This document shows, in pieces, positions 1 through 44,486 of a stretch of DNA of 44,883 bases (the first letter of the stretch is position 1; each line of letters starts with the position of its first letter). The stretch comes from Escherichia phage EEc2. The stretch is from sequence record ON210144.1. The stretch is one strand, 5' to 3'. The position numbers were made by a program, and so were the translations under genes. The notes below the pieces were generated by a model. The model was given only the letters and a program-made list of their open reading frames with translations. It was not told where the DNA came from and did no database searches.

Positions 1-610
1 TCTCGCCCTCGCCCTCGCCGGGTTGTCCCCATAGGGTGGCCTGAGGGAATCCGTCTTCGACGGGCAGGGCTGATGTACTCCTTGTCTAGTACAAGGGAGG
101 CGGAGGGAGCACCTAGGGAGGCCTAGGAATGGCTTAGTGGTGGACAAGGTGATTACCTTAGTGAAGCCTCTTAGTGCATTCCTGAGGCCATTCAGGGCGT
201 TTATGAGGTATTGACAGGGTGGATGGGCGTGGGCTATCTGTTCGTTTCGTTCACTCCGCTTGCGCTACGTTCACTCGCTCACGTGTACCTTAGTTTATTC
301 CTTGATGGATAGCTTAGGTTAGCCTTAGTGGATTACCTTAGTTAAAGCCTTAGTGCTTCACTTAGTATCAGCTTAGTAGTGTACCTTAGTAAGTCTTAGT
401 GTCTTCTCTTAGTGATTGCACATGCAAGCATGTAAGATGCCATTAGGTCGCGGTCGGTAGACCGCTGAGAGTAGGTAATAGTGATAAGATGCAGTAGGAG
501 GAACACCAGAAACCTAGCCAACCTAAGCTATCCTAGCTCTATATCTATTGCTTTTCCTTAGTCTAACACGTTAGACAACCTATCTTATTCTTAGTGATGG
601 TAACTTAGTG

Positions 611-639
611 TTGACAAGATAATCTTAGTGTAATACTAT
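611..639 (+). promoter_or_regulatory. Candidate host sigma70 promoter (TTGACA, 17 bp spacer, TACTAT)
   Basis: Perfect -35 hexamer at 611-616 and 4/6 -10 match at 634-639, upstream of the first early genes. Pattern match only. Confidence 0.3.
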
Positions 640-711
640 GCATCACGTAGGCGGTGCTGAGGCACCTAGTAGCCAGCTAGTAAGGCATACGAAGAGACTA
701 GCGCTTACATT

Positions 712-727
712 GCTCTTTAACAATTTG
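712..727 (+). repeat. Conserved early intergenic box GCTCTTTAACAATTTG, copy 1
   Basis: One of three near-identical 16-mers (712, 1246, 1444), each in an early intergenic gap. Confidence 0.6.
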
Positions 728-782
728 CTTAGTGTAACCTATGTATGCCGTGGTCAATTACTTATTGAATGAGGAATTAACT

Positions 783-965
783 ATGACATTAAACAACCGT
801 GAACTATCCGTTCTCTTCACTCTGTTATGCTATATGATTCGTAACAACGAATTACTTACAGATGACGAACTGGCCTTGTATCACCGCTTTATTAACGAAG
901 GTTGGACCGATACAGTTAACCAGAAACGTGACTTGATGGAGGAGTTAAGCAATGTATCAGCATGA
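783..965 (+). CDS. Hypothetical early protein (60 aa)
   Basis: ATG at 783 has GAGGA 7 nt upstream; the in-frame ATG at 741 used by the ORF track has no SD. No recognisable motif. Confidence 0.45.
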   Translation: MTLNNRELSVLFTLLCYMIRNNELLTDDELALYHRFINEGWTDTVNQKRDLMEELSNVSA

Positions 966-1176
966 GGTTTTCTTTGAGTCAGCTAGTGAAGCTATCCGCT
1001 TCCATGATGATATGATGCAAGCTGGCGTAGGTGTTGATGTGTATCACTATTTGATAGATTACGACACTGAATATCACCGAGTTACCTTAGTATCTGAGTA
1101 TGACAACCAAGTCATTACTGAGTATCTAGGTAGTGAAGATTATGATTACGATGAAGTAATCACGACAAATCTCTAA
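952..1176 (+). CDS. Hypothetical small acidic early protein (74 aa, D/E/Y-rich)
   Basis: ATG with GGAGG 9 nt upstream; 14-nt overlap with previous ORF. Strongly acidic composition. Confidence 0.5.
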   Translation: MYQHEVFFESASEAIRFHDDMMQAGVGVDVYHYLIDYDTEYHRVTLVSEYDNQVITEYLGSEDYDYDEVITTNL

Positions 1177-1184
1177 ATTAACTA

Positions 1185-1213
1185 TTGACAGCCACGGCAT
1201 ACAAGGTTACATT
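1185..1213 (+). promoter_or_regulatory. Candidate host sigma70 promoter (TTGACA, 17 bp spacer, TACATT)
   Basis: Perfect -35 at 1185-1190 and 4/6 -10 at 1208-1213 in an early intergenic region. Confidence 0.3.
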
Positions 1214-1245
1214 AAGCACATAGCCGATAGGCAACGCTCTTTAAC

Positions 1246-1261
1246 AATCTGGTTTGTGTCT
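1246..1261 (+). repeat. Conserved early intergenic box GCTCTTTAACAATCTG, copy 2
   Basis: 15/16 identical to copies 1 and 3; lies between two early ORFs. Confidence 0.6.
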
Positions 1262-1290
1262 TGATAGGCTAACTAACTAAGGTAATTATT

Positions 1291-1401
1291 ATGAAAGGTT
1301 TAATTTGTGTAGAACGTATGGTCAATGGTAAACTTGAAATTTTACCACTGGAAAACCAATCTAGCTTCAAAGAGTGGTATGGCTGTTTCTCACTGATTTA
1401 A
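1291..1401 (+). CDS. Hypothetical small early protein (36 aa)
   Basis: ATG with AAGG upstream; translates MKGLICVERMVNGKLEILPLENQSSFKEWYGCFSLI. Below the ORF-track size cut-off. Confidence 0.3.
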   Translation: MKGLICVERMVNGKLEILPLENQSSFKEWYGCFSLI

Positions 1402-1443
1402 TGTAAAGGCTGGCACTAGTCAGCCTATCAAGGCGCAAACCAA

Positions 1444-1459
1444 GCTCTTTAACAATTTG
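1444..1459 (+). repeat. Conserved early intergenic box GCTCTTTAACAATTTG, copy 3
   Basis: Identical to copy 1; flanked by inverted repeat CCTATC...GATAGG and lies upstream of ocr. Confidence 0.6.
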
Positions 1460-1552
1460 GGTGGTAGCTTCTTAGTCTGGATAGGTTAAACCTAGGAGAT
1501 TCTCTTGAGTCTCCTATAATGTAACCTAACTAACTAAATGAGGATTAATAAC

Positions 1553-1906
1553 ATGGCTATGTCTAATATGACTTACTCTCAGGTTTACAACACCGCTCAT
1601 GCTGCATTAGTTGAACGTATCTGGAATGATGATATTGATTGTATCGATAACGCACATGATGCAATCCATGAGGTAGCGGACAGTGCTGTACCAATCTATT
1701 ATGCTGACATCTTCTCAGTGATGGCGAGTGAAGGTATTGATCACTTCTTCGAAGACTCCGGCCTGATGCCAGATACTAAGGATGTAACGGTCGTACTACA
1801 AGCCCGTATTTATGAACAACTCACCATTGATTTATGGGAACGTGTTCAAGATATGATTGTTGCGTACACCACTTACGCTGAGTATTCAGAAGAAGAGGAA
1901 GAATAA
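1553..1906 (+). CDS. ocr: Ocr-like DNA-mimic anti-restriction protein (T7 gp0.3 homolog)
   Basis: Starts MAMSNMTY and carries HDAIH...[19 protein letters not shown]...[13 protein letters not shown]...[15 protein letters not shown] plus an acidic tail, matching T7 Ocr as I recall it; 117 aa. SD GAGGA upstream of ATG 1553. Confidence 0.9.
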
Positions 1907-1907
1907 G

Positions 1908-2021
1908 ATGGAAAAGCTATACAACTTCATCTTTTCAGACGGTGTAACCCTGAAGTGTTCCCTACGATTCGCACAAATTCGTGAGGAAGTACTAGGCACT
2001 ACATACAAACTATTTAGCTGA
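1908..2021 (+). CDS. Hypothetical small early protein (37 aa)
   Basis: ATG 2 nt after the ocr stop with GAGGAAG upstream; translates MEKLYNFIFSDGVTLKCSLRFAQIREEVLGTTYKLFS. Confidence 0.3.
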   Translation: MEKLYNFIFSDGVTLKCSLRFAQIREEVLGTTYKLFS

Positions 2022-2032
2022 CACTATAAGAG
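2012..2032 (+). promoter_or_regulatory. Phage-type promoter variant P0 (ATTTAGCTGACACTATAAGAG)
   Basis: 17/21 match to the window consensus; TATAAG replaces TATAGA at the start site. Lies in the early region upstream of the 2098 gene. Confidence 0.45.
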
Positions 2033-2097
2033 AAGGCTTAACAAGGCGTTACTAAGGTAGCGCCTGATTAAACTTTCACTTACTAGGAGTTAAGACT

Positions 2098-2325
2098 ATG
2101 GATTTAGATAGCATCATTATGGCATTTGCTCTTATTGGCTTAAGCTGGTGCTCCTATCACCTTTACCGTGAGTTCTTATTTGATAAAGCTAAACGCAAAC
2201 TAAGAAAGGAAGGCGGTAATTACCTTCGTTTGAGGGGTGGCTTAGTCGAATACATTGCACCTAACGGCAGGGAATGCGCCATTAACAAAGATGCATTTAT
2301 AGAGACGTGGCATTACATCAAGTAA
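2098..2325 (+). CDS. Hypothetical early protein with N-terminal hydrophobic segment (75 aa)
   Basis: ATG with TAGGAG upstream; N-terminus IIMAFALIGLSW is hydrophobic. Confidence 0.5.
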   Translation: MDLDSIIMAFALIGLSWCSYHLYREFLFDKAKRKLRKEGGNYLRLRGGLVEYIAPNGRECAINKDAFIETWHYIK

Positions 2326-2389
2326 CTAGCCTATAGCCTGCCTGCGTGGGCTATGTGATATTTACTTATCATTATATAAGGTGACTATT

Positions 2390-3274
2390 ATGACTACTGA
2401 AAACATCCTCCTGTCTGTCCGTGAAGCTGCAACTGCTGAGATTAAGCAGCATTTGGATAATATCGGCACTTCTTACATCAAAGTTGGCGCTTGTCTGAAT
2501 GAATTGCGCGGTGATTTCGAAGGCCAAAAAGACTTTTTAGCTTATGTAGAATCAGAGTTCGGCATCAAGAAAGCACAATGCTACAAGCTGATGAGTGTAG
2601 CCCGTGTCTTTGAAGGAGACGAACGCTTTAAAGGTGTGGCTATGCGTGTAATGCTGGCACTCGTTCCTTTCGCTGATGAGAATATAATCATGGAGAAGGC
2701 CGCAGAACTCGCCGCAGATGGCAAGCTGGACACTAATGCCGTAAATGCCCTGATTGATCCTAAGAAAGAGACAAAGGCCGAGACGGTACAATCTAAGGCT
2801 GAGGCGGTAAAACCGCAGGAGAACGCGACTGAGTCCGCAGAATTACAGGAAATGCAAGCGCCGCAGGTAGTGCCACCCGCGAGCGAGCAGGAGGCCGACG
2901 AATCAGCACCTTGGGAAGAGGAAAGCAAGCCGGAAGCGCCTAAGGTCGCGCCACTGGATAACACGGCTAACACCGAGAGTGCCGCTATTGCTGGCCTTCT
3001 GGCACAAATTAAAGCACTGACCGAGCAATTACAGGCAGCTAATGACCGCATTGCCTCCTTAAGCAGCGCACGCGAAAGCAAGAAAGCAGCCGCTCCTATG
3101 CTGCCGCAATTCAAATCTTCCTGCTTCTATGCTCGCTTAGGTTTAAGCGCTGAGGAGGCAACGAAGAAAACAGCAGTTAACAAGGCACGCCGCGAACTGG
3201 TTAAGCTAGGATACGGCGAAGGCCATGAAGCATGGCCCTTAATCTCTGAGGCAGTAGAAGAATTAACTAAGTAA
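2390..3274 (+). CDS. Hypothetical early protein (294 aa), at the position of T7 gene 0.7 but with no kinase motifs
   Basis: ATG 2390 with AAGG 8 nt upstream (track start 2381 is GTG). Central Ala/Glu/Pro-rich low-complexity region and a C-terminal coiled-coil-like segment. Confidence 0.6.
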   Translation: MTTENILLSVREAATAEIKQHLDNIGTSYIKVGACLNELRGDFEGQKDFLAYVESEFGIKKAQCYKLMSVARVFEGDERFKGVAMRVMLALVPFADENIIMEKAAELAADGKLDTNAVNALIDPKKETKAETVQSKAEAVKPQENATESAELQEMQAPQVVPPASEQEADESAPWEEESKPEAPKVAPLDNTANTESAAIAGLLAQIKALTEQLQAANDRIASLSSARESKKAAAPMLPQFKSSCFYARLGLSAEEATKKTAVNKARRELVKLGYGEGHEAWPLISEAVEELTK

Positions 3275-3337
3275 CCTTATCGGTGGCATCTTCTTAGGTG
3301 TCACCTATTAAGGTTTCTTTCACTAGGAGTAAACAAG

Positions 3338-5965
3338 ATGCAAGACCTACACGCTATTCAACTTCAACTTGAAGAAGAAATGTTTAACGGCGGTATCCGT
3401 CGCTTTGAAGCGGACCAACAACGCCAGATTGCATCCGGTAATGAATCAGACACGGCATGGAATCGCCGCTTATTGTCCGAGTTAATCGCGCCAATGGCTG
3501 AAGGTATTCAGGCATACAAGGAAGAGTATGAAGGTAAAAGAGGCCGTGCACCGCGTGCATTAGCTTTCATTAACTGCGTAGAAAACGAAGTGGCAGCATA
3601 TATCACGATGAAAATCGTTATGGATATGCTGAACACGGATGTAACCTTGCAGGCTATAGCCATGAATGTAGCTGACCGCATTGAGGACCAAGTACGTTTT
3701 AGCAAGCTGGAAGGTCACGCCGCCAAATACTTTGAGAAAGTTAAGAAGTCACTTAAGGCAAGTAAGACTAAATCATATCGCCATGCGCACAACGTAGCGG
3801 TCGTGGCTGAGAAGTCAGTAGCTGACCGTGACGCTGATTTCTCTCGCTGGGAGGCGTGGCCTAAAGATACCTTGCTACAAATTGGTATGACCTTGCTAGA
3901 AATACTGGAAAATAGTGTATTCTTCAATGGTCAGCCTGTCTTTCTTCGCACCTTGCGCACTAATGGTGGCAAGCATGGCGTTTACTACTTACAGACTAGC
4001 GAACACGTGGGTGAATGGATAACTGCATTTAAAGAGCACGTAGCTCAGCTGAGTCCAGCCTATGCACCTTGCGTTATTCCTCCGCGTCCGTGGGTTTCTC
4101 CGTTTAATGGTGGCTTTCACACCGAGAAGGTGGCAAGTCGCATCCGTCTAGTAAAAGGTAACCGTGAGCACGTCCGTAAGCTGACTAAAAAGCAAATGCC
4201 AGCGGTTTATAAGGCTGTTAATGCATTGCAAGCCACTAAGTGGCAGGTTAACAAGGAAGTATTGCAGGTAGTAGAAGATGTTATTCGTCTAGACCTCGGT
4301 TATGGTGTACCTTCCTTTAAGCCGCTCATTGACCGCGAGAACAAACCAGCTAACCCTGTTCCTCTTGAGTTCCAACACCTGCGAGGCCGTGAACTGAAAG
4401 AGATGCTAACACCGGAGCAATGGCAGGCCTTCATCAACTGGAAGGGTGAATGTACTAAACTGTATACCGCTGAGACTAAGCGCGGCAGCAAGTCGGCGGC
4501 GACCGTCCGCATGGTAGGACAGGCCCGTAAATACAGCCAGTTTGACGCTATTTATTTTGTATATGCACTGGATAGCCGTTCACGCGTTTATGCGCAATCT
4601 AGCACGCTCTCGCCGCAATCAAACGACTTAGGCAAGGCATTGCTCCGTTTTACCGAAGGGCAGCGTCTTGATAGCGCTGAGGCGCTTAAGTGGTTTTTGG
4701 TGAACGGGGCGAATAACTGGGGTTGGGATAAGAAAACTTTTGACGTGCGCACCTCTAACGTGCTGGATGGCGAATTTCAAGACATGTGCCGCGACATTGC
4801 AGCCGATCCGCTGACCTTCACTCAATGGGTAAATGCTGATTCCCCTTACGGCTTCCTTGCATGGTGCTTTGAATATGCGCGTTATCTGGATGCACTGGAT
4901 GAAGGCACGCAAGACCAATTCATGACGCACCTACCCGTCCATCAAGACGGTAGTTGCTCTGGTATCCAGCACTATAGCGCGATGTTACGCGATGAAGTAG
5001 GTGCGAAAGCAGTAAACCTTAAGCCTTCTGACTTCCCTCAAGATATTTATGGCGCGGTTGCGCAGGTTGTTATCCAGAAGAATTACGCCTACATGAATGC
5101 AGACGATGCAGAGACTTTCACATCTGGAAGCGTCACACTTACAGGTGCAGAACTGCGTAGCATGGCTAGTGCGTGGGATATGATAGGAATAACTCGCGGA
5201 TTGACCAAAAAGCCCGTAATGACACTACCTTATGGCAGCACACGTCTAACCTGCCGTGAATCAGTGATTGATTATATCGTTGATTTGGAAGAAAAAGAGG
5301 CCCAACGAGCTATTGCGGAAGGGCGTACCGCCAATCCTGTACACCCTTTTGATAATGACCGTAAGGACAGCCTGACACCTAGCGCAGCTTATAACTATAT
5401 GACAGCTTTAATCTGGCCTTCTATTTCGGAAGTGGTTAAAGCTCCTATAGTGGCAATGAAAATGATTCGTCAGCTTGCCCGTTTCGCAGCTAAAAGGAAT
5501 GAAGGCTTAGAGTATACCTTGCCTACTGGCTTCATCTTGCAACAAAAGATTATGGCTACTGATATGCTCCGCGTATCCACTTGCCTGATGGGAGAAATCA
5601 AGATGAGTCTCCAGATTGAAACGGACGTAGTGGATGAAACGGCTATGATGGGCGCTGCTGCTCCTAACTTTGTGCATGGTCATGATGCCAGTCACCTTAT
5701 CTTAACAGTCTGCGACCTTGTTGATAAAGGGATTACATCTATCGCAGTCATTCATGATTCTTTCGGTACTCACGCAGGCCGTACAGCCGATCTTCGTGAT
5801 AGCTTAAGGGCAGAAATGGTGAAGATGTATCAAGGCCGTAATGCCCTGCAAAGCCTGTTAGATGAGCATGAAGAACGCTGGTTAGTAGACACCGGAATCC
5901 AAGTGCCAGAGCAAGGAGAGTTTGACCTTAACGAAATCTTAGTATCTGACTATTGCTTCGCATAA
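3338..5965 (+). CDS. Single-subunit DNA-directed RNA polymerase (T7 gene 1 type), 875 aa
   Basis: Motifs [13 protein letters not shown] and HDSFGT and a C-terminal ...CFA match the T7/SP6 RNAP family. TAGGAG SD upstream. Confidence 0.97.
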
Positions 5966-42773: not shown

Positions 42774-44486
42774 ATGCTTCAAAGATTAAGTGCTTACTTG
42801 GTGAAGTACAAGAGTAAACTAACAGGTACTATTGAGCGCCTGCTATCTGATAAACTATCGGATACAATAGATGTTGCGGATTTTGGAGTTACTCCATCTT
42901 CCAATGACAACAGGCAAGCACTTCAAGCTGCGTTCAATGCAGTCAGAGTGTTAGGCGGTGGCACTGTATTAGTCACTAAAGCTGGAAAATACAAACTCAG
43001 TGGTACTGTTGAGATATTTGCTAATACACACTTCAAGGTGGCTAAAGGTGTAACATTTGTACGTGACTACGAAACAGGAGATACGCTATTCAGATTATCA
43101 CAAGGGCAAGCTAGTAATGTAACAGTCAGTGGAGGTATCTATGAAGGCAATGGTCACACTAAGGGAGATACACCTTTTGTAGTATTTGCATCTACTAGTA
43201 ATAATGATTTGAAGTTTGAAGGCATAACAGTTAACAATGTAGTGGACTACCACGCCATAGATTTAGCAGATTGGAACAACGTAGTTATTCGTGATTGTAA
43301 ATTCCTAGGTTTTAAGAATACAGGCAGTCGTAACTTCTCAGAGGCTATACAGTTAGACCCAGGTCTTATTACAGTTGGTCACTATGTACAGTCAAGTGGT
43401 ATGCTGGTGGAGAATTGCTATGCTGGTCCAAACACAGAATCAGGGTTTGGAGGTTATGGTGCACTAATTGGAAATCACGCCTCAGCTTACGGTGTACAGG
43501 ACAACAATATCCGTATCTTGAATTGCACTACAGATGGTGCTCTCTTTGCAGGTGTACGTGTATTTAACTGGAAAAACTGGACAGTGCGTGGTTGCACATT
43601 TAGGAACTCTAATGCAAGAGGTGTCCATGTTACACCTGTCTCATCTCAGACTAAACCGCAGGGTACTCGACAAGGTAGTATTGTAGATTGCACTTTTGAT
43701 GGCGTAAGGACACCAGTGCTAATTGCTGCACCATCTTGGCCTTTTACCGATATTAGTGACATTTGGCATGACCATATTGAAATTTCTAATAATACTATGA
43801 TCCTCACAGAGGATGTATCCTATGGTGTAGATGCAAGGTGGTGTAAGAATTTAATTGTAAAAGGTAATACAGGCTCTGGTGGCTTAGGGTTAATCGGTTT
43901 ACGCTTTGGGACAAAATACCACATCGAAGGTAATACTTGGGAAAACGGAAGAGGTAGTGGGATTTGGTTAGGTGAGTCTGATGCTACTACATTCATTGGT
44001 ACTGGTTTATCAGGAGAAGGTATACTTAGTCGTAATATCTTCTCTAAATTAGGGCAATATGGTATTCATGTAAACTGCAAGGCTAGCTGTCTAGTGATTA
44101 AAGCCAATAATATGAAGGAAGTATCTACAGCTGAAGCAGGTAGGCACTTCATTAGTATAGACACAGGGGCTAACAACATCCTAGTAGAAGGTAATATTGG
44201 AGTAGACGGAGAAAGCCCTAACAAGCCAAGCCTTGGTATTCGTGTTACTTCTTCTTGTTCCAATATTAAACTCATTGGCAATGATTGCTATGGCACACAG
44301 GCGCCTCAGAATAACCAAGGAGTTGGTTCTAGTACGGTGATTGTTTATGGGCTAAATGGCAACCCTACAACTTTAGGCGTAGGTGCACCTGTAGGCTCTT
44401 TAGCAACTGATATCAATGGTTCTGGTGGTAGTACATTGTACGTTAAAGAATCTGGTACATCTGCTCAAGGTTGGGTTGCAAAGTAG
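42774..44486 (+). CDS. Tailspike 2: second beta-helix depolymerase-like protein, 570 aa
   Basis: Strong SD GAGGAGG; N-terminal DTIDVADFGVTPSSNDNRQALQAAFNA...GGGTVLV motif; Gly/Asn/Thr-rich repeats consistent with parallel beta-helix; no T7 gp17 N-terminal domain. Confidence 0.8.
   Translation: MLQRLSAYLVKYKSKLTGTIERLLSDKLSDTIDVADFGVTPSSNDNRQALQAAFNAVRVLGGGTVLVTKAGKYKLSGTVEIFANTHFKVAKGVTFVRDYETGDTLFRLSQGQASNVTVSGGIYEGNGHTKGDTPFVVFASTSNNDLKFEGITVNNVVDYHAIDLADWNNVVIRDCKFLGFKNTGSRNFSEAIQLDPGLITVGHYVQSSGMLVENCYAGPNTESGFGGYGALIGNHASAYGVQDNNIRILNCTTDGALFAGVRVFNWKNWTVRGCTFRNSNARGVHVTPVSSQTKPQGTRQGSIVDCTFDGVRTPVLIAAPSWPFTDISDIWHDHIEISNNTMILTEDVSYGVDARWCKNLIVKGNTGSGGLGLIGLRFGTKYHIEGNTWENGRGSGIWLGESDATTFIGTGLSGEGILSRNIFSKLGQYGIHVNCKASCLVIKANNMKEVSTAEAGRHFISIDTGANNILVEGNIGVDGESPNKPSLGIRVTSSCSNIKLIGNDCYGTQAPQNNQGVGSSTVIVYGLNGNPTTLGVGAPVGSLATDINGSGGSTLYVKESGTSAQGWVAK

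Follow-up and report, generated by a model that had tools for sequence, protein, structure and literature searches.

Early genes gp1 and gp2 upstream of ocr in Escherichia phage EEc2 as reasonable candidates for a role against host defences

Do the two small genes that precede ocr in Escherichia phage EEc2 encode further proteins directed against host defences? The first-pass annotation of this DNA (sequence record ON210144.1; the window, by which we mean the whole stretch analysed, is 44,883 nucleotides long) had put forward both open reading frames (ORFs) as candidate anti-defence factors, ORF1 at 783..965 and ORF2 at 952..1176 of the plus strand. The coordinates of both agree with the ORF list, and both were found to be real, acidic genes. 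They are reasonable candidates and not a discovery: both were already annotated elsewhere, and one earlier screen that covered them reported no phenotype for this allele. They may plausibly counter host defences, a role that is neither shown nor refuted. The reading that we prefer, which we hold tentatively and at slightly less than even confidence, is that gp2, the product of ORF2, is a binder of some host or prophage factor, variable between strains, that is involved in the conflict between phage and host immunity, with gp1, the product of ORF1, acting on a conserved host component.

Identity and coding status of ORF1 and ORF2

A megablast of 961 bases around the locus matched 98 phage records with a top identity of 95%, all of them Vectrevirus or SP6-like podophages, K1-5 among them. 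By sequence, the window appears to be an essentially complete SP6/K1-5-type phage genome (Autographiviridae, Molineuxvirinae; Vectrevirus). Gene-by-gene correspondence identified ORF1 as gene 1 (gp1) and ORF2 as gene 2 (gp2) of K1-5, K1E and SP6. Neither sequence had been recognised in the first-pass annotation, but both genes are already annotated in relatives and belong to phrog_9275 and phrog_6403, respectively, each labelled ‘unknown function’. ORF1 matched the phrog_9275 profile with residues 1–58 on positions 1–58 of 59 (E = 4.3e-40), and ORF2 matched phrog_6403 with residues 1–74 on positions 1–69 of 69 (E = 2.2e-29). The gp2 proteins of K1E and K1-5 are 100% and 98.6% identical to ORF2, respectively. 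As members of this gp1 and gp2 set, the two ORFs show no essential difference from their counterparts, apart from the diverged and less acidic gp2 of SP6. The order gp1, gp2, then ocr is common to the window and the K1-5/K1E/SP6 group, ocr itself (1553..1906, plus strand; PF08684, E = 3.4e-43; phrog_2568) encoding the DNA-mimic anti-restriction protein. The window also conforms to the usual position of the gp2 family, which is the leftmost early region of ~44–46 kb Molineuxvirinae genomes, usually directly 3′ of gp1.

Scans against Pfam, NCBIfam and PADLOC gave zero matches for ORF1 and ORF2, and the family-library scans revealed no similarity of either to Ocr (PF08684) or ArdA. A sequence search of the PDB found no solved-structure relative of either ORF, except for spurious matches to pentatricopeptide-repeat proteins. 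These matches, which the ORF2 clade gave in both the profile and the PDB sequence searches, were rejected because they cover helix alpha1 only (positions 11–33) and owe their scores to many weak repeats added together, with no stretch passing by itself in the PDB search.

The two ORFs are real protein-coding genes under purifying selection, because the ratio of nonsynonymous to synonymous divergence (dN/dS) is low in the presence of many synonymous differences and because both have Shine-Dalgarno sites. In pairwise Nei-Gojobori comparisons with 11–12 related phages, dN/dS was 0.05–0.19 for ORF1 and 0.02–0.31 for ORF2 (no higher than 0.14 for residues 41–74), and synonymous changes were plentiful in both. 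ORF1 is preceded by GAGGA 7 nucleotides before ATG 783, and GGAGG, 9 nucleotides before ATG 952, is the Shine-Dalgarno sequence of ORF2. A longer, in-frame ORF1 beginning at ATG 741 (74 residues, annotated in some relatives) was rejected as the main form, because that start has no Shine-Dalgarno sequence, the extension is absent or different in most homologues, and the start used in SP6 and K1-5 corresponds to 783. It could be argued that the ORFs are not functional proteins and that the segment matters as DNA or RNA only, through its promoters, boxA and leader; the flanking linkers are indeed conserved at the nucleotide level, and synonymous divergence in ORF2 drops from its 5′ half to its 3′ half. 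We find this scarcely credible given that dN/dS stays far below 1 in many comparisons of either ORF, and given good Shine-Dalgarno sequences and confident structure predictions for both, intact reading frames in 62–101 phage genomes, and leaders with no Rfam match and no unusual RNA folding. Over positions 1–3400 the Rfam scan returned only sub-threshold palindromic miRNA-model matches, on both strands of a hairpin at 2021–2092, and the leaders at 640–790 and 1170–1300 folded no better than shuffles.

gp1 (60 residues) is mildly acidic, with a net charge of −5 and a pI of 4.5. It was found in 101 phage records at identities of 60–95%, namely 87–95% in E. coli Vectrevirus, 68% in SP6 and 60–64% in Klebsiella phages, and it is also conserved in Citrobacter and Salmonella phages. 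The alignment of 38 homologues contains 14 invariant columns, and structure prediction gave a three-helix bundle with a predicted local distance difference test score (pLDDT) of 89. Its distribution marks gp1 as a conserved core early gene and not a variable accessory gene.

Acidity, predicted fold and alleles of gp2

The first-pass annotation had described ORF2 as extremely acidic and tyrosine-rich, quoting a peptide that is the exact C-terminus of its translation, and this description holds well. The 74-residue protein has 17 aspartates and glutamates against 2 lysines and arginines, a net charge of −15 and a pI of ~4.05, and its 9 tyrosines make up 12.2% of the sequence. These are extremes of the proteome: when the window's 66 plus-strand ORFs that start with ATG and reach 50 residues or more are compared, no other has as negative a charge per residue (−0.203, against −0.164 for the ocr ORF) or as high a tyrosine fraction as ORF2. 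A very high negative net charge, which is one mark of DNA mimics, is thus found in ORF2 (−15 over 74 residues), ORF1 having only −5. Within the K1-5-type clade, conservation reaches 93% or more of 45 sequences at 14 of the 17 acidic positions and at Y37, Y41, Y50, Y58, Y64 and Y66; the N-terminal half of gp2 is otherwise variable in this clade.

Structure prediction, which the first-pass annotation had proposed as a check, returned folded domains for both proteins and, for gp2, a fold that is generic. The gp2 model (mean pLDDT 81, predicted template-modelling score 0.68) comprises beta(2–8), alpha(11–23), beta(27–33), beta(41–48), alpha(52–61) and beta(66–73), a predicted beta-alpha-beta-beta-alpha-beta topology that is ferredoxin-like. 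A Foldseek search of predicted viral structures (BFVD) superposed gp2 on proteins of phages PP1, CrRp3 and PM116 with template-modelling scores of 0.71–0.79. All the viral matches are proteins of other Autographiviridae (Pectobacterium PP1, Citrobacter CrRp3 and Proteus PM116) that have not been characterised; the superpositions lend the fold independent support. The ferredoxin-like beta-alpha-beta-beta-alpha-beta core is also common to CutA1 and PII-like (GlnB-like) proteins, which differ from gp2 in that identity is only 8–17%, there is no Pfam match, and their 100–112 residues exceed the 74 of gp2 by 30–40. The C-terminal and T-loop elements with which that superfamily trimerises and binds ligands were not recognised in gp2.

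Sequence comparison showed that the gp2 slot is occupied by deeply different alleles. SP6 gp2, the orf24 of Silas et al. and the small relatives P0167, P0170 and P0173 all match phrog_6403, with gp2, SP6 gp2 and orf24 matching the profile over its full length. The ORF2 type was present in 62 phage records, and a second allele class (VEc3 vec3_03, which is orf24) and its relatives in 39; by these counts the two together nearly account for all gp1-bearing phages, and the slot would be nearly always filled. In VEc3, gp1 is 93% identical to ORF1, yet the alignment of gp2 (orf24) with the ORF2 clade covers residues 1–20 only. The ULINTec4 allele, which is close to VEc3 orf24, is 20% identical to ORF2, and SP6 gp2 is 22% identical. 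Alignment of the ORF2 clade with the single orf24 and SP6 gp2 sequences by hhalign gave weak probabilities of 12–25%, and the family link between the three types therefore relies on the PHROG profile. orf24 resembles ORF2 in its full-length phrog_6403 match, its slot between gp1 and ocr and its size (69 against 74 residues), and differs in net charge (−2 against −15) as well as in the short span over which the two align. Over the family the net charge runs from −2 to −15 (orf24 −2, VLCpiA2a −2, phD2B −3, SP6 −7), and inside the E. coli K1-5-type clade from −9 to −15. Because of this span, hyperacidity looks like a trait of one allele class and not of the family.

Searches for more distant relatives stayed within the same group of phages. 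Among 5.8 billion proteins, relatives of ORF2 were solely of 54–74 residues and, where long contigs were recorded, lay on contigs of 42–46 kb. An exhaustive search of 1.84 billion cluster representatives with the ORF2-clade profile added only three further small relatives (P0167, P0170 and P0173), and a broader family profile retrieved 84 clusters, all of 49–77 residues and on ~43–46 kb contigs where long ones were recorded. The gp2 family thus seems confined to SP6-like phages of enterobacteria. In the metagenomic P0170 (190 residues) the gp2 relative is fused to a 117-residue N-terminal extension, which could hint at a partner function.

The composition of gp2 had been taken in the first-pass annotation as typical of DNA-mimic or decoy proteins, and this turned out to be a weak argument, given the spread of charge in the family. 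Neither ORF resembles Ocr or any entry of Pfam, NCBIfam or PADLOC, and the predicted fold of gp2 is generic. The corresponding explanation is that K1-5-type gp2 is a true DNA mimic of the Ocr, ArdA or Arn kind, its carboxylates copying the phosphates of B-DNA, and that it competitively inhibits a DNA-binding defence nuclease beyond those met by Ocr, such as RecBCD or a restriction enzyme of type III or IV. The charge density of gp2 (−0.20 per residue) exceeds that of the phage's own Ocr, its acidic positions are conserved within the K1-5-type clade, and its expression would precede even that of ocr. Among small hyperacidic phage proteins, most of those characterised (Ocr, ArdA, Arn, gp5.9, UGI, AcrIIA4 and AcrF2) are nucleic-acid mimics and have unrelated folds, and the fold of gp2 is therefore no objection to mimicry. 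Against this stand the absence of homology to PF08684 or other Pfam families, the near-neutral charge of same-family homologues in the same slot (orf24, VLCpiA2a and phD2B) and the size of the domain, whose 74 residues would span few base-pair equivalents unless oligomeric. In addition, the 96%-identical orf96 was not among the sensitising genes of published screens, whereas Ocr, Ral and ArdA were validated hits in them (bioRxiv 10.1101/2023.04.06.535777; PMC12373910). Taken together, we consider such DNA mimicry by gp2 unlikely.

Ocr itself (T7 gp0.3, PF08684) offers a close comparison by setting. Like gp2 it is small, immediate-early and hyperacidic (−0.16 to −0.18 per residue against −0.20 for gp2), and in the window it is encoded ~380 nucleotides downstream in the same host-transcribed segment. 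The two share no sequence similarity, and gp2 is predicted to be a compact alpha/beta domain; Ocr is an all-helical elongated dimer. Ocr also gave clear phenotypes in the published screens, with none reported for orf96.

Early transcription and cassette organisation

The first-pass annotation had placed the two genes in the first host-transcribed segment, and the promoter-like sites of the region bear this out. A sigma-70-type promoter-like site on the plus strand at 611..639 (TTGACA-17-TACTAT, 10/12 consensus matches) would drive an ORF1-ORF2 transcript, and a second on the same strand at 1185..1213 (TTGACA-17-TACATT) lies directly after ORF2, at the start of the next cassette. The count of sigma-70-like sites in the region does not exceed the shuffle expectation and each site is a consensus match only; the placement of the 611..639 site ahead of boxA and ORF1 counts in its favour. 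The first SP6-type promoter-like core for the phage RNA polymerase, TGACACTATAA, is at 2019..2029 on the plus strand and forms the right limit of the segment with host-type promoters only. With one mismatch allowed, the core TGACACTATAR occurred 15 times in the window against 1.9 expected, 12 times on the plus strand and nowhere left of 2019. ORF1, ORF2, a 36-residue ORF, ocr and a 37-residue gene after ocr would all lie in this segment. Because the sigma-70-like sites are at 611 and 1185 and the first phage-promoter-like site is at 2019, ORF1 and ORF2 are probably the first genes of the segment, expressed by host RNA polymerase before ocr.

The conserved linkers between these genes carry boxA-like elements. 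The element GCTCTTTAACAA is found at 712..723 in the ORF1 leader, inside the conserved linker ~694–791, and as exact copies at 1236..1247 and at 1444..1455, the latter ahead of ocr. These three exact copies in the window are all on the plus strand and in the early region, against 0.36 expected with one mismatch allowed; an additional site with one mismatch lies at 44395–44406. We take GCTCTTTAACAA to match the antitermination consensus boxA of the E. coli rrn operons; in T7 a copy precedes gene 0.3. Each exact copy in the window stands before an early gene cassette, within a linker module of 60–100 nucleotides. The linker ~694–791, with boxA and the ORF1 leader, is shared with K1E, SP6 and others and is 89–98% identical in most relatives, and the linkers ~694–791, ~1179–1295 and ~1409–1460, with their boxA and promoter sequences, are common even to SP6, Lelliottia phage phD2B and Klebsiella phage VLCpiA2a. 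The genes between the conserved linkers are exchanged among relatives. The boxA-bearing linkers may thus serve antitermination and also act as recombination joints for cassette exchange.

The 14-nucleotide overlap of ORF1 and ORF2, with the translational coupling that it could allow, suggested an obligate gp1-gp2 pair. This was rejected because an extra gene lies between gp1 and gp2 in K1E and PDP21 phages, and because phD2B and VLCpiA2a have gp2 without detectable gp1; ocr is likewise not detectable in these two phages. In K1E and K1-5, whose gp2 is 98–100% identical to ORF2, ocr is only 61% identical over 77 residues, and at locus L002 it is 98% identical. The early cassettes therefore seem, from these comparisons of gene content, to reassort independently.

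Several further observations concern the ends of the cassettes. Across the compared loci (L001, L003 and L010–L012), ocr alleles were mosaic with respect to gp2 alleles. The final 5–6 residues of gp1 (945–965; homologues L001, L002 and L006) have two forms, ...DLMEELSNVSA in the window and ...NMIDELREGK in K1-5, and the switch between them coincides with the type of junction, which is the 14-nucleotide overlap in the window and abutting genes in K1-5. These variants point to cassette junctions at gene ends. Within ORF2, synonymous divergence (dS) in codons 41–74 (1072–1176) was consistently far below that in codons 1–40 (0.10 against 1.0 in the comparison with ULINTec6), a step which suggests either an intragenic recombination breakpoint or an extra nucleotide-level constraint beside the promoter-like site at 1185.

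Both ORFs had been called the two before ocr; they are upstream of it, but the 36-residue ORF at 1291..1401 (plus strand, from the ORF list) intervenes. It occupies a variable slot between gp2 and ocr, is preceded by a weak Shine-Dalgarno-like AAGG, and gave no Pfam or PHROG match. The same slot holds gp2.5 and gp2.8 in K1E and a 54-residue gene in ULINTec6 and mutPK1A2. Further right, the TGACACTATAA core at 2019, which precedes the phage RNA polymerase gene (3338..5965), overlaps the hairpin-forming stretch 2021–2092. At the left end, CTTAGT occurs 16 times on the plus strand within the first 700 bases (130–630) against ~0.17 expected, mostly as (A/C)CTTAGT(G/A) and with a spacing of ~10–13 nucleotides between 324 and 408. 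T7 has similar short repeats at its left end.

Published screens and candidate functions

Members of both families have been included in published functional screens. Silas et al. chose ~200 accessory genes from highly variable phage regions and asked which of them are conditionally lethal in ECOR strains and which sensitise cells to 8 model phages (bioRxiv 10.1101/2023.04.06.535777), and a peer-reviewed companion paper covered 196 genes, 20 wild E. coli and 45 phage-host pairs (PMC12373910). In the Silas gene table, UDP0096 (orf96) is AFH19829.1 of phage ACG-C91, which has 3/74 differences from ORF2 (95.9% identity); UDP0172 (orf172) is a gp1 homologue (phrog_9275, E = 2e-38); and UDP0024 (orf24) is VEc3 vec3_03. 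The genes listed with a phenotype are orf7, 24, 48, 63, 92, 98, 116, 126, 143, 145, 148 and 184 (10.1101/2023.04.06.535777). Among these, orf24 is reported to inhibit the growth of ECOR61 through a prophage-encoded cell-death system whose likely effector is an Icd-like protein, and which is described as a superinfection-exclusion system; orf24 was placed by the authors in the same accessory region as ocr (10.1101/2023.04.06.535777). Expression of orf24 alone was conditionally lethal in ECOR61, and orf96 has no such report (10.1101/2023.04.06.535777). The sensing of orf24 ties the gp2 family to phage-host conflict.

The claim that the two proteins are anti-defence candidates therefore stands in part. 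Their early position and the sensing of orf24 by a cell-death system speak for it; orf96 and orf172 are without a reported phenotype, and gp1 is a conserved core gene. No evidence here separates counter-defence from other early host-directed functions. Literature searches on the peptide strings, on Vectrevirus anti-defence and on the early genes of K1-5, K1E and SP6 turned up the screens of Silas et al. as the only functional work on gp1 or gp2.

Early small proteins of the T7 group often inhibit housekeeping proteins of the host, as T7 gp0.4, gp0.6, gp0.7 and gp2 do. One or both of the proteins studied here could accordingly be takeover factors unrelated to immunity, with RNA polymerase, a nucleoid protein, cell division or the cytoskeleton as the target. 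The high conservation of gp1 over Escherichia, Salmonella, Klebsiella and Citrobacter phages would fit a conserved target, both genes are immediate-early, and the missing counter-defence phenotype in the screens is compatible with such a role. The extreme divergence of gp2 among phages of one host species fits a housekeeping target poorly. We also considered gp1 as a relative of the FtsZ inhibitor T7 gp0.4 and rejected this, as no alignment was obtained with an approximate gp0.4 query. Finally, neither orf96 nor orf172 was reported as conditionally lethal, which is a weak point, since universally toxic genes were not displayed in the figure. We regard host takeover as possible but doubtful.

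The orf24 sensor raises another explanation, in which gp2 acts in competition between phages, by superinfection exclusion or by interference with prophages or satellites, and not on host defence. That sensor is prophage-encoded and described as superinfection exclusion, so that proteins of the gp2 family are ‘seen’ by mobile elements; but the status of a trigger does not reveal the activity of gp2 itself. The family-library scans detected no membrane segments and no similarity to known exclusion proteins, and an obligately lytic phage with a short cycle would presumably gain little from an immediate-early exclusion factor. A function of this kind seems very improbable to us.

We return to the binding of a strain-variable factor by gp2, a reading to which we were led because the slot is always occupied, its alleles diverge beside a conserved gp1, and one allele is sensed by a prophage defence. 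On this reading, host RNA polymerase would start at the leftmost early promoter, pass a leader with an rrn-like boxA and transcribe gp1 and gp2 before ocr is expressed, as independent cassettes and not as an obligate pair. gp1 would be a conserved three-helix protein, and because it is conserved its target is more probably a conserved host component. gp2 would be a small, stable ferredoxin-like scaffold whose slot is almost always filled by deeply diverged alleles, and would act as a stoichiometric protein binder that inhibits the strain-variable factor, is sensed by it, or both. In the K1-5/K1E type, binding may occur through the conserved cluster of carboxylates and tyrosines in loops 36–40 and 62–68 together with Y37, Y41, Y64 and Y66, and the cluster could act by electrostatic mimicry or by occlusion of a basic, probably nucleic-acid-binding, surface. 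In the predicted topology, the beta2-beta3 hairpin (D36, D38, E40, Y37 and Y41) should share a pole with the alpha2-beta4 loop and the first residues of beta4 (E62, D63, Y64, D65, Y66, D67 and E68). That gp2 binds a host protein, that this cluster is the interface and that counter-defence is the outcome are three steps which we infer.

Several points weigh against this proposal. The alignments behind the AlphaFold2 models were shallow (45 close relatives for gp2 and 38 for gp1), and the placement of the acidic and tyrosine residues at one pole is topological reasoning from the secondary-structure string, not from coordinates. Net charge is not conserved over the gp2 family, the family-wide invariant or near-invariant residues are only M1, H4, E5, L59, V69, I70 and T71, and most of these sit in the predicted beta1 and beta4 strands, where they may be purely structural. 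Since dN/dS was below 1 in every pairwise comparison, there was no direct signal of positive selection. Both orf96 and orf172 are absent from the phenotype list of Silas et al., the companion paper names neither among its hits or near-hits (PMC12373910), and the literature yielded no binding partner or phenotype for this gp1 or gp2. The negative results of the screens for orf96 and orf172 are limited in scope.

A bolder form of the proposal treats the gp2 slot as holding a hypervariable binder scaffold of minimal ferredoxin-like form, its surface re-tooled in each allele. The K1-5/K1E type would then be a new nucleic-acid mimic on a fold not previously used for this purpose, neutralising a defence or DNA-binding host factor beyond those met by Ocr, and escape from prophage sensors such as the ECOR61 system would drive the divergence. 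We consider this version decidedly unlikely.

SP6/K1-5-type phages serve as agents against pathogenic, encapsulated E. coli, Salmonella and Klebsiella, and the genes that they express first probably determine if an infection can withstand the immediate defences of the host. If gp2 inhibits a defence, or is sensed by abortive-infection systems, its allele type would help to predict host range. As a self-contained cassette between conserved linkers, gp2 would in that case be an easy handle for engineering, and a compact alpha/beta scaffold would be added to the known small phage inhibitor proteins.

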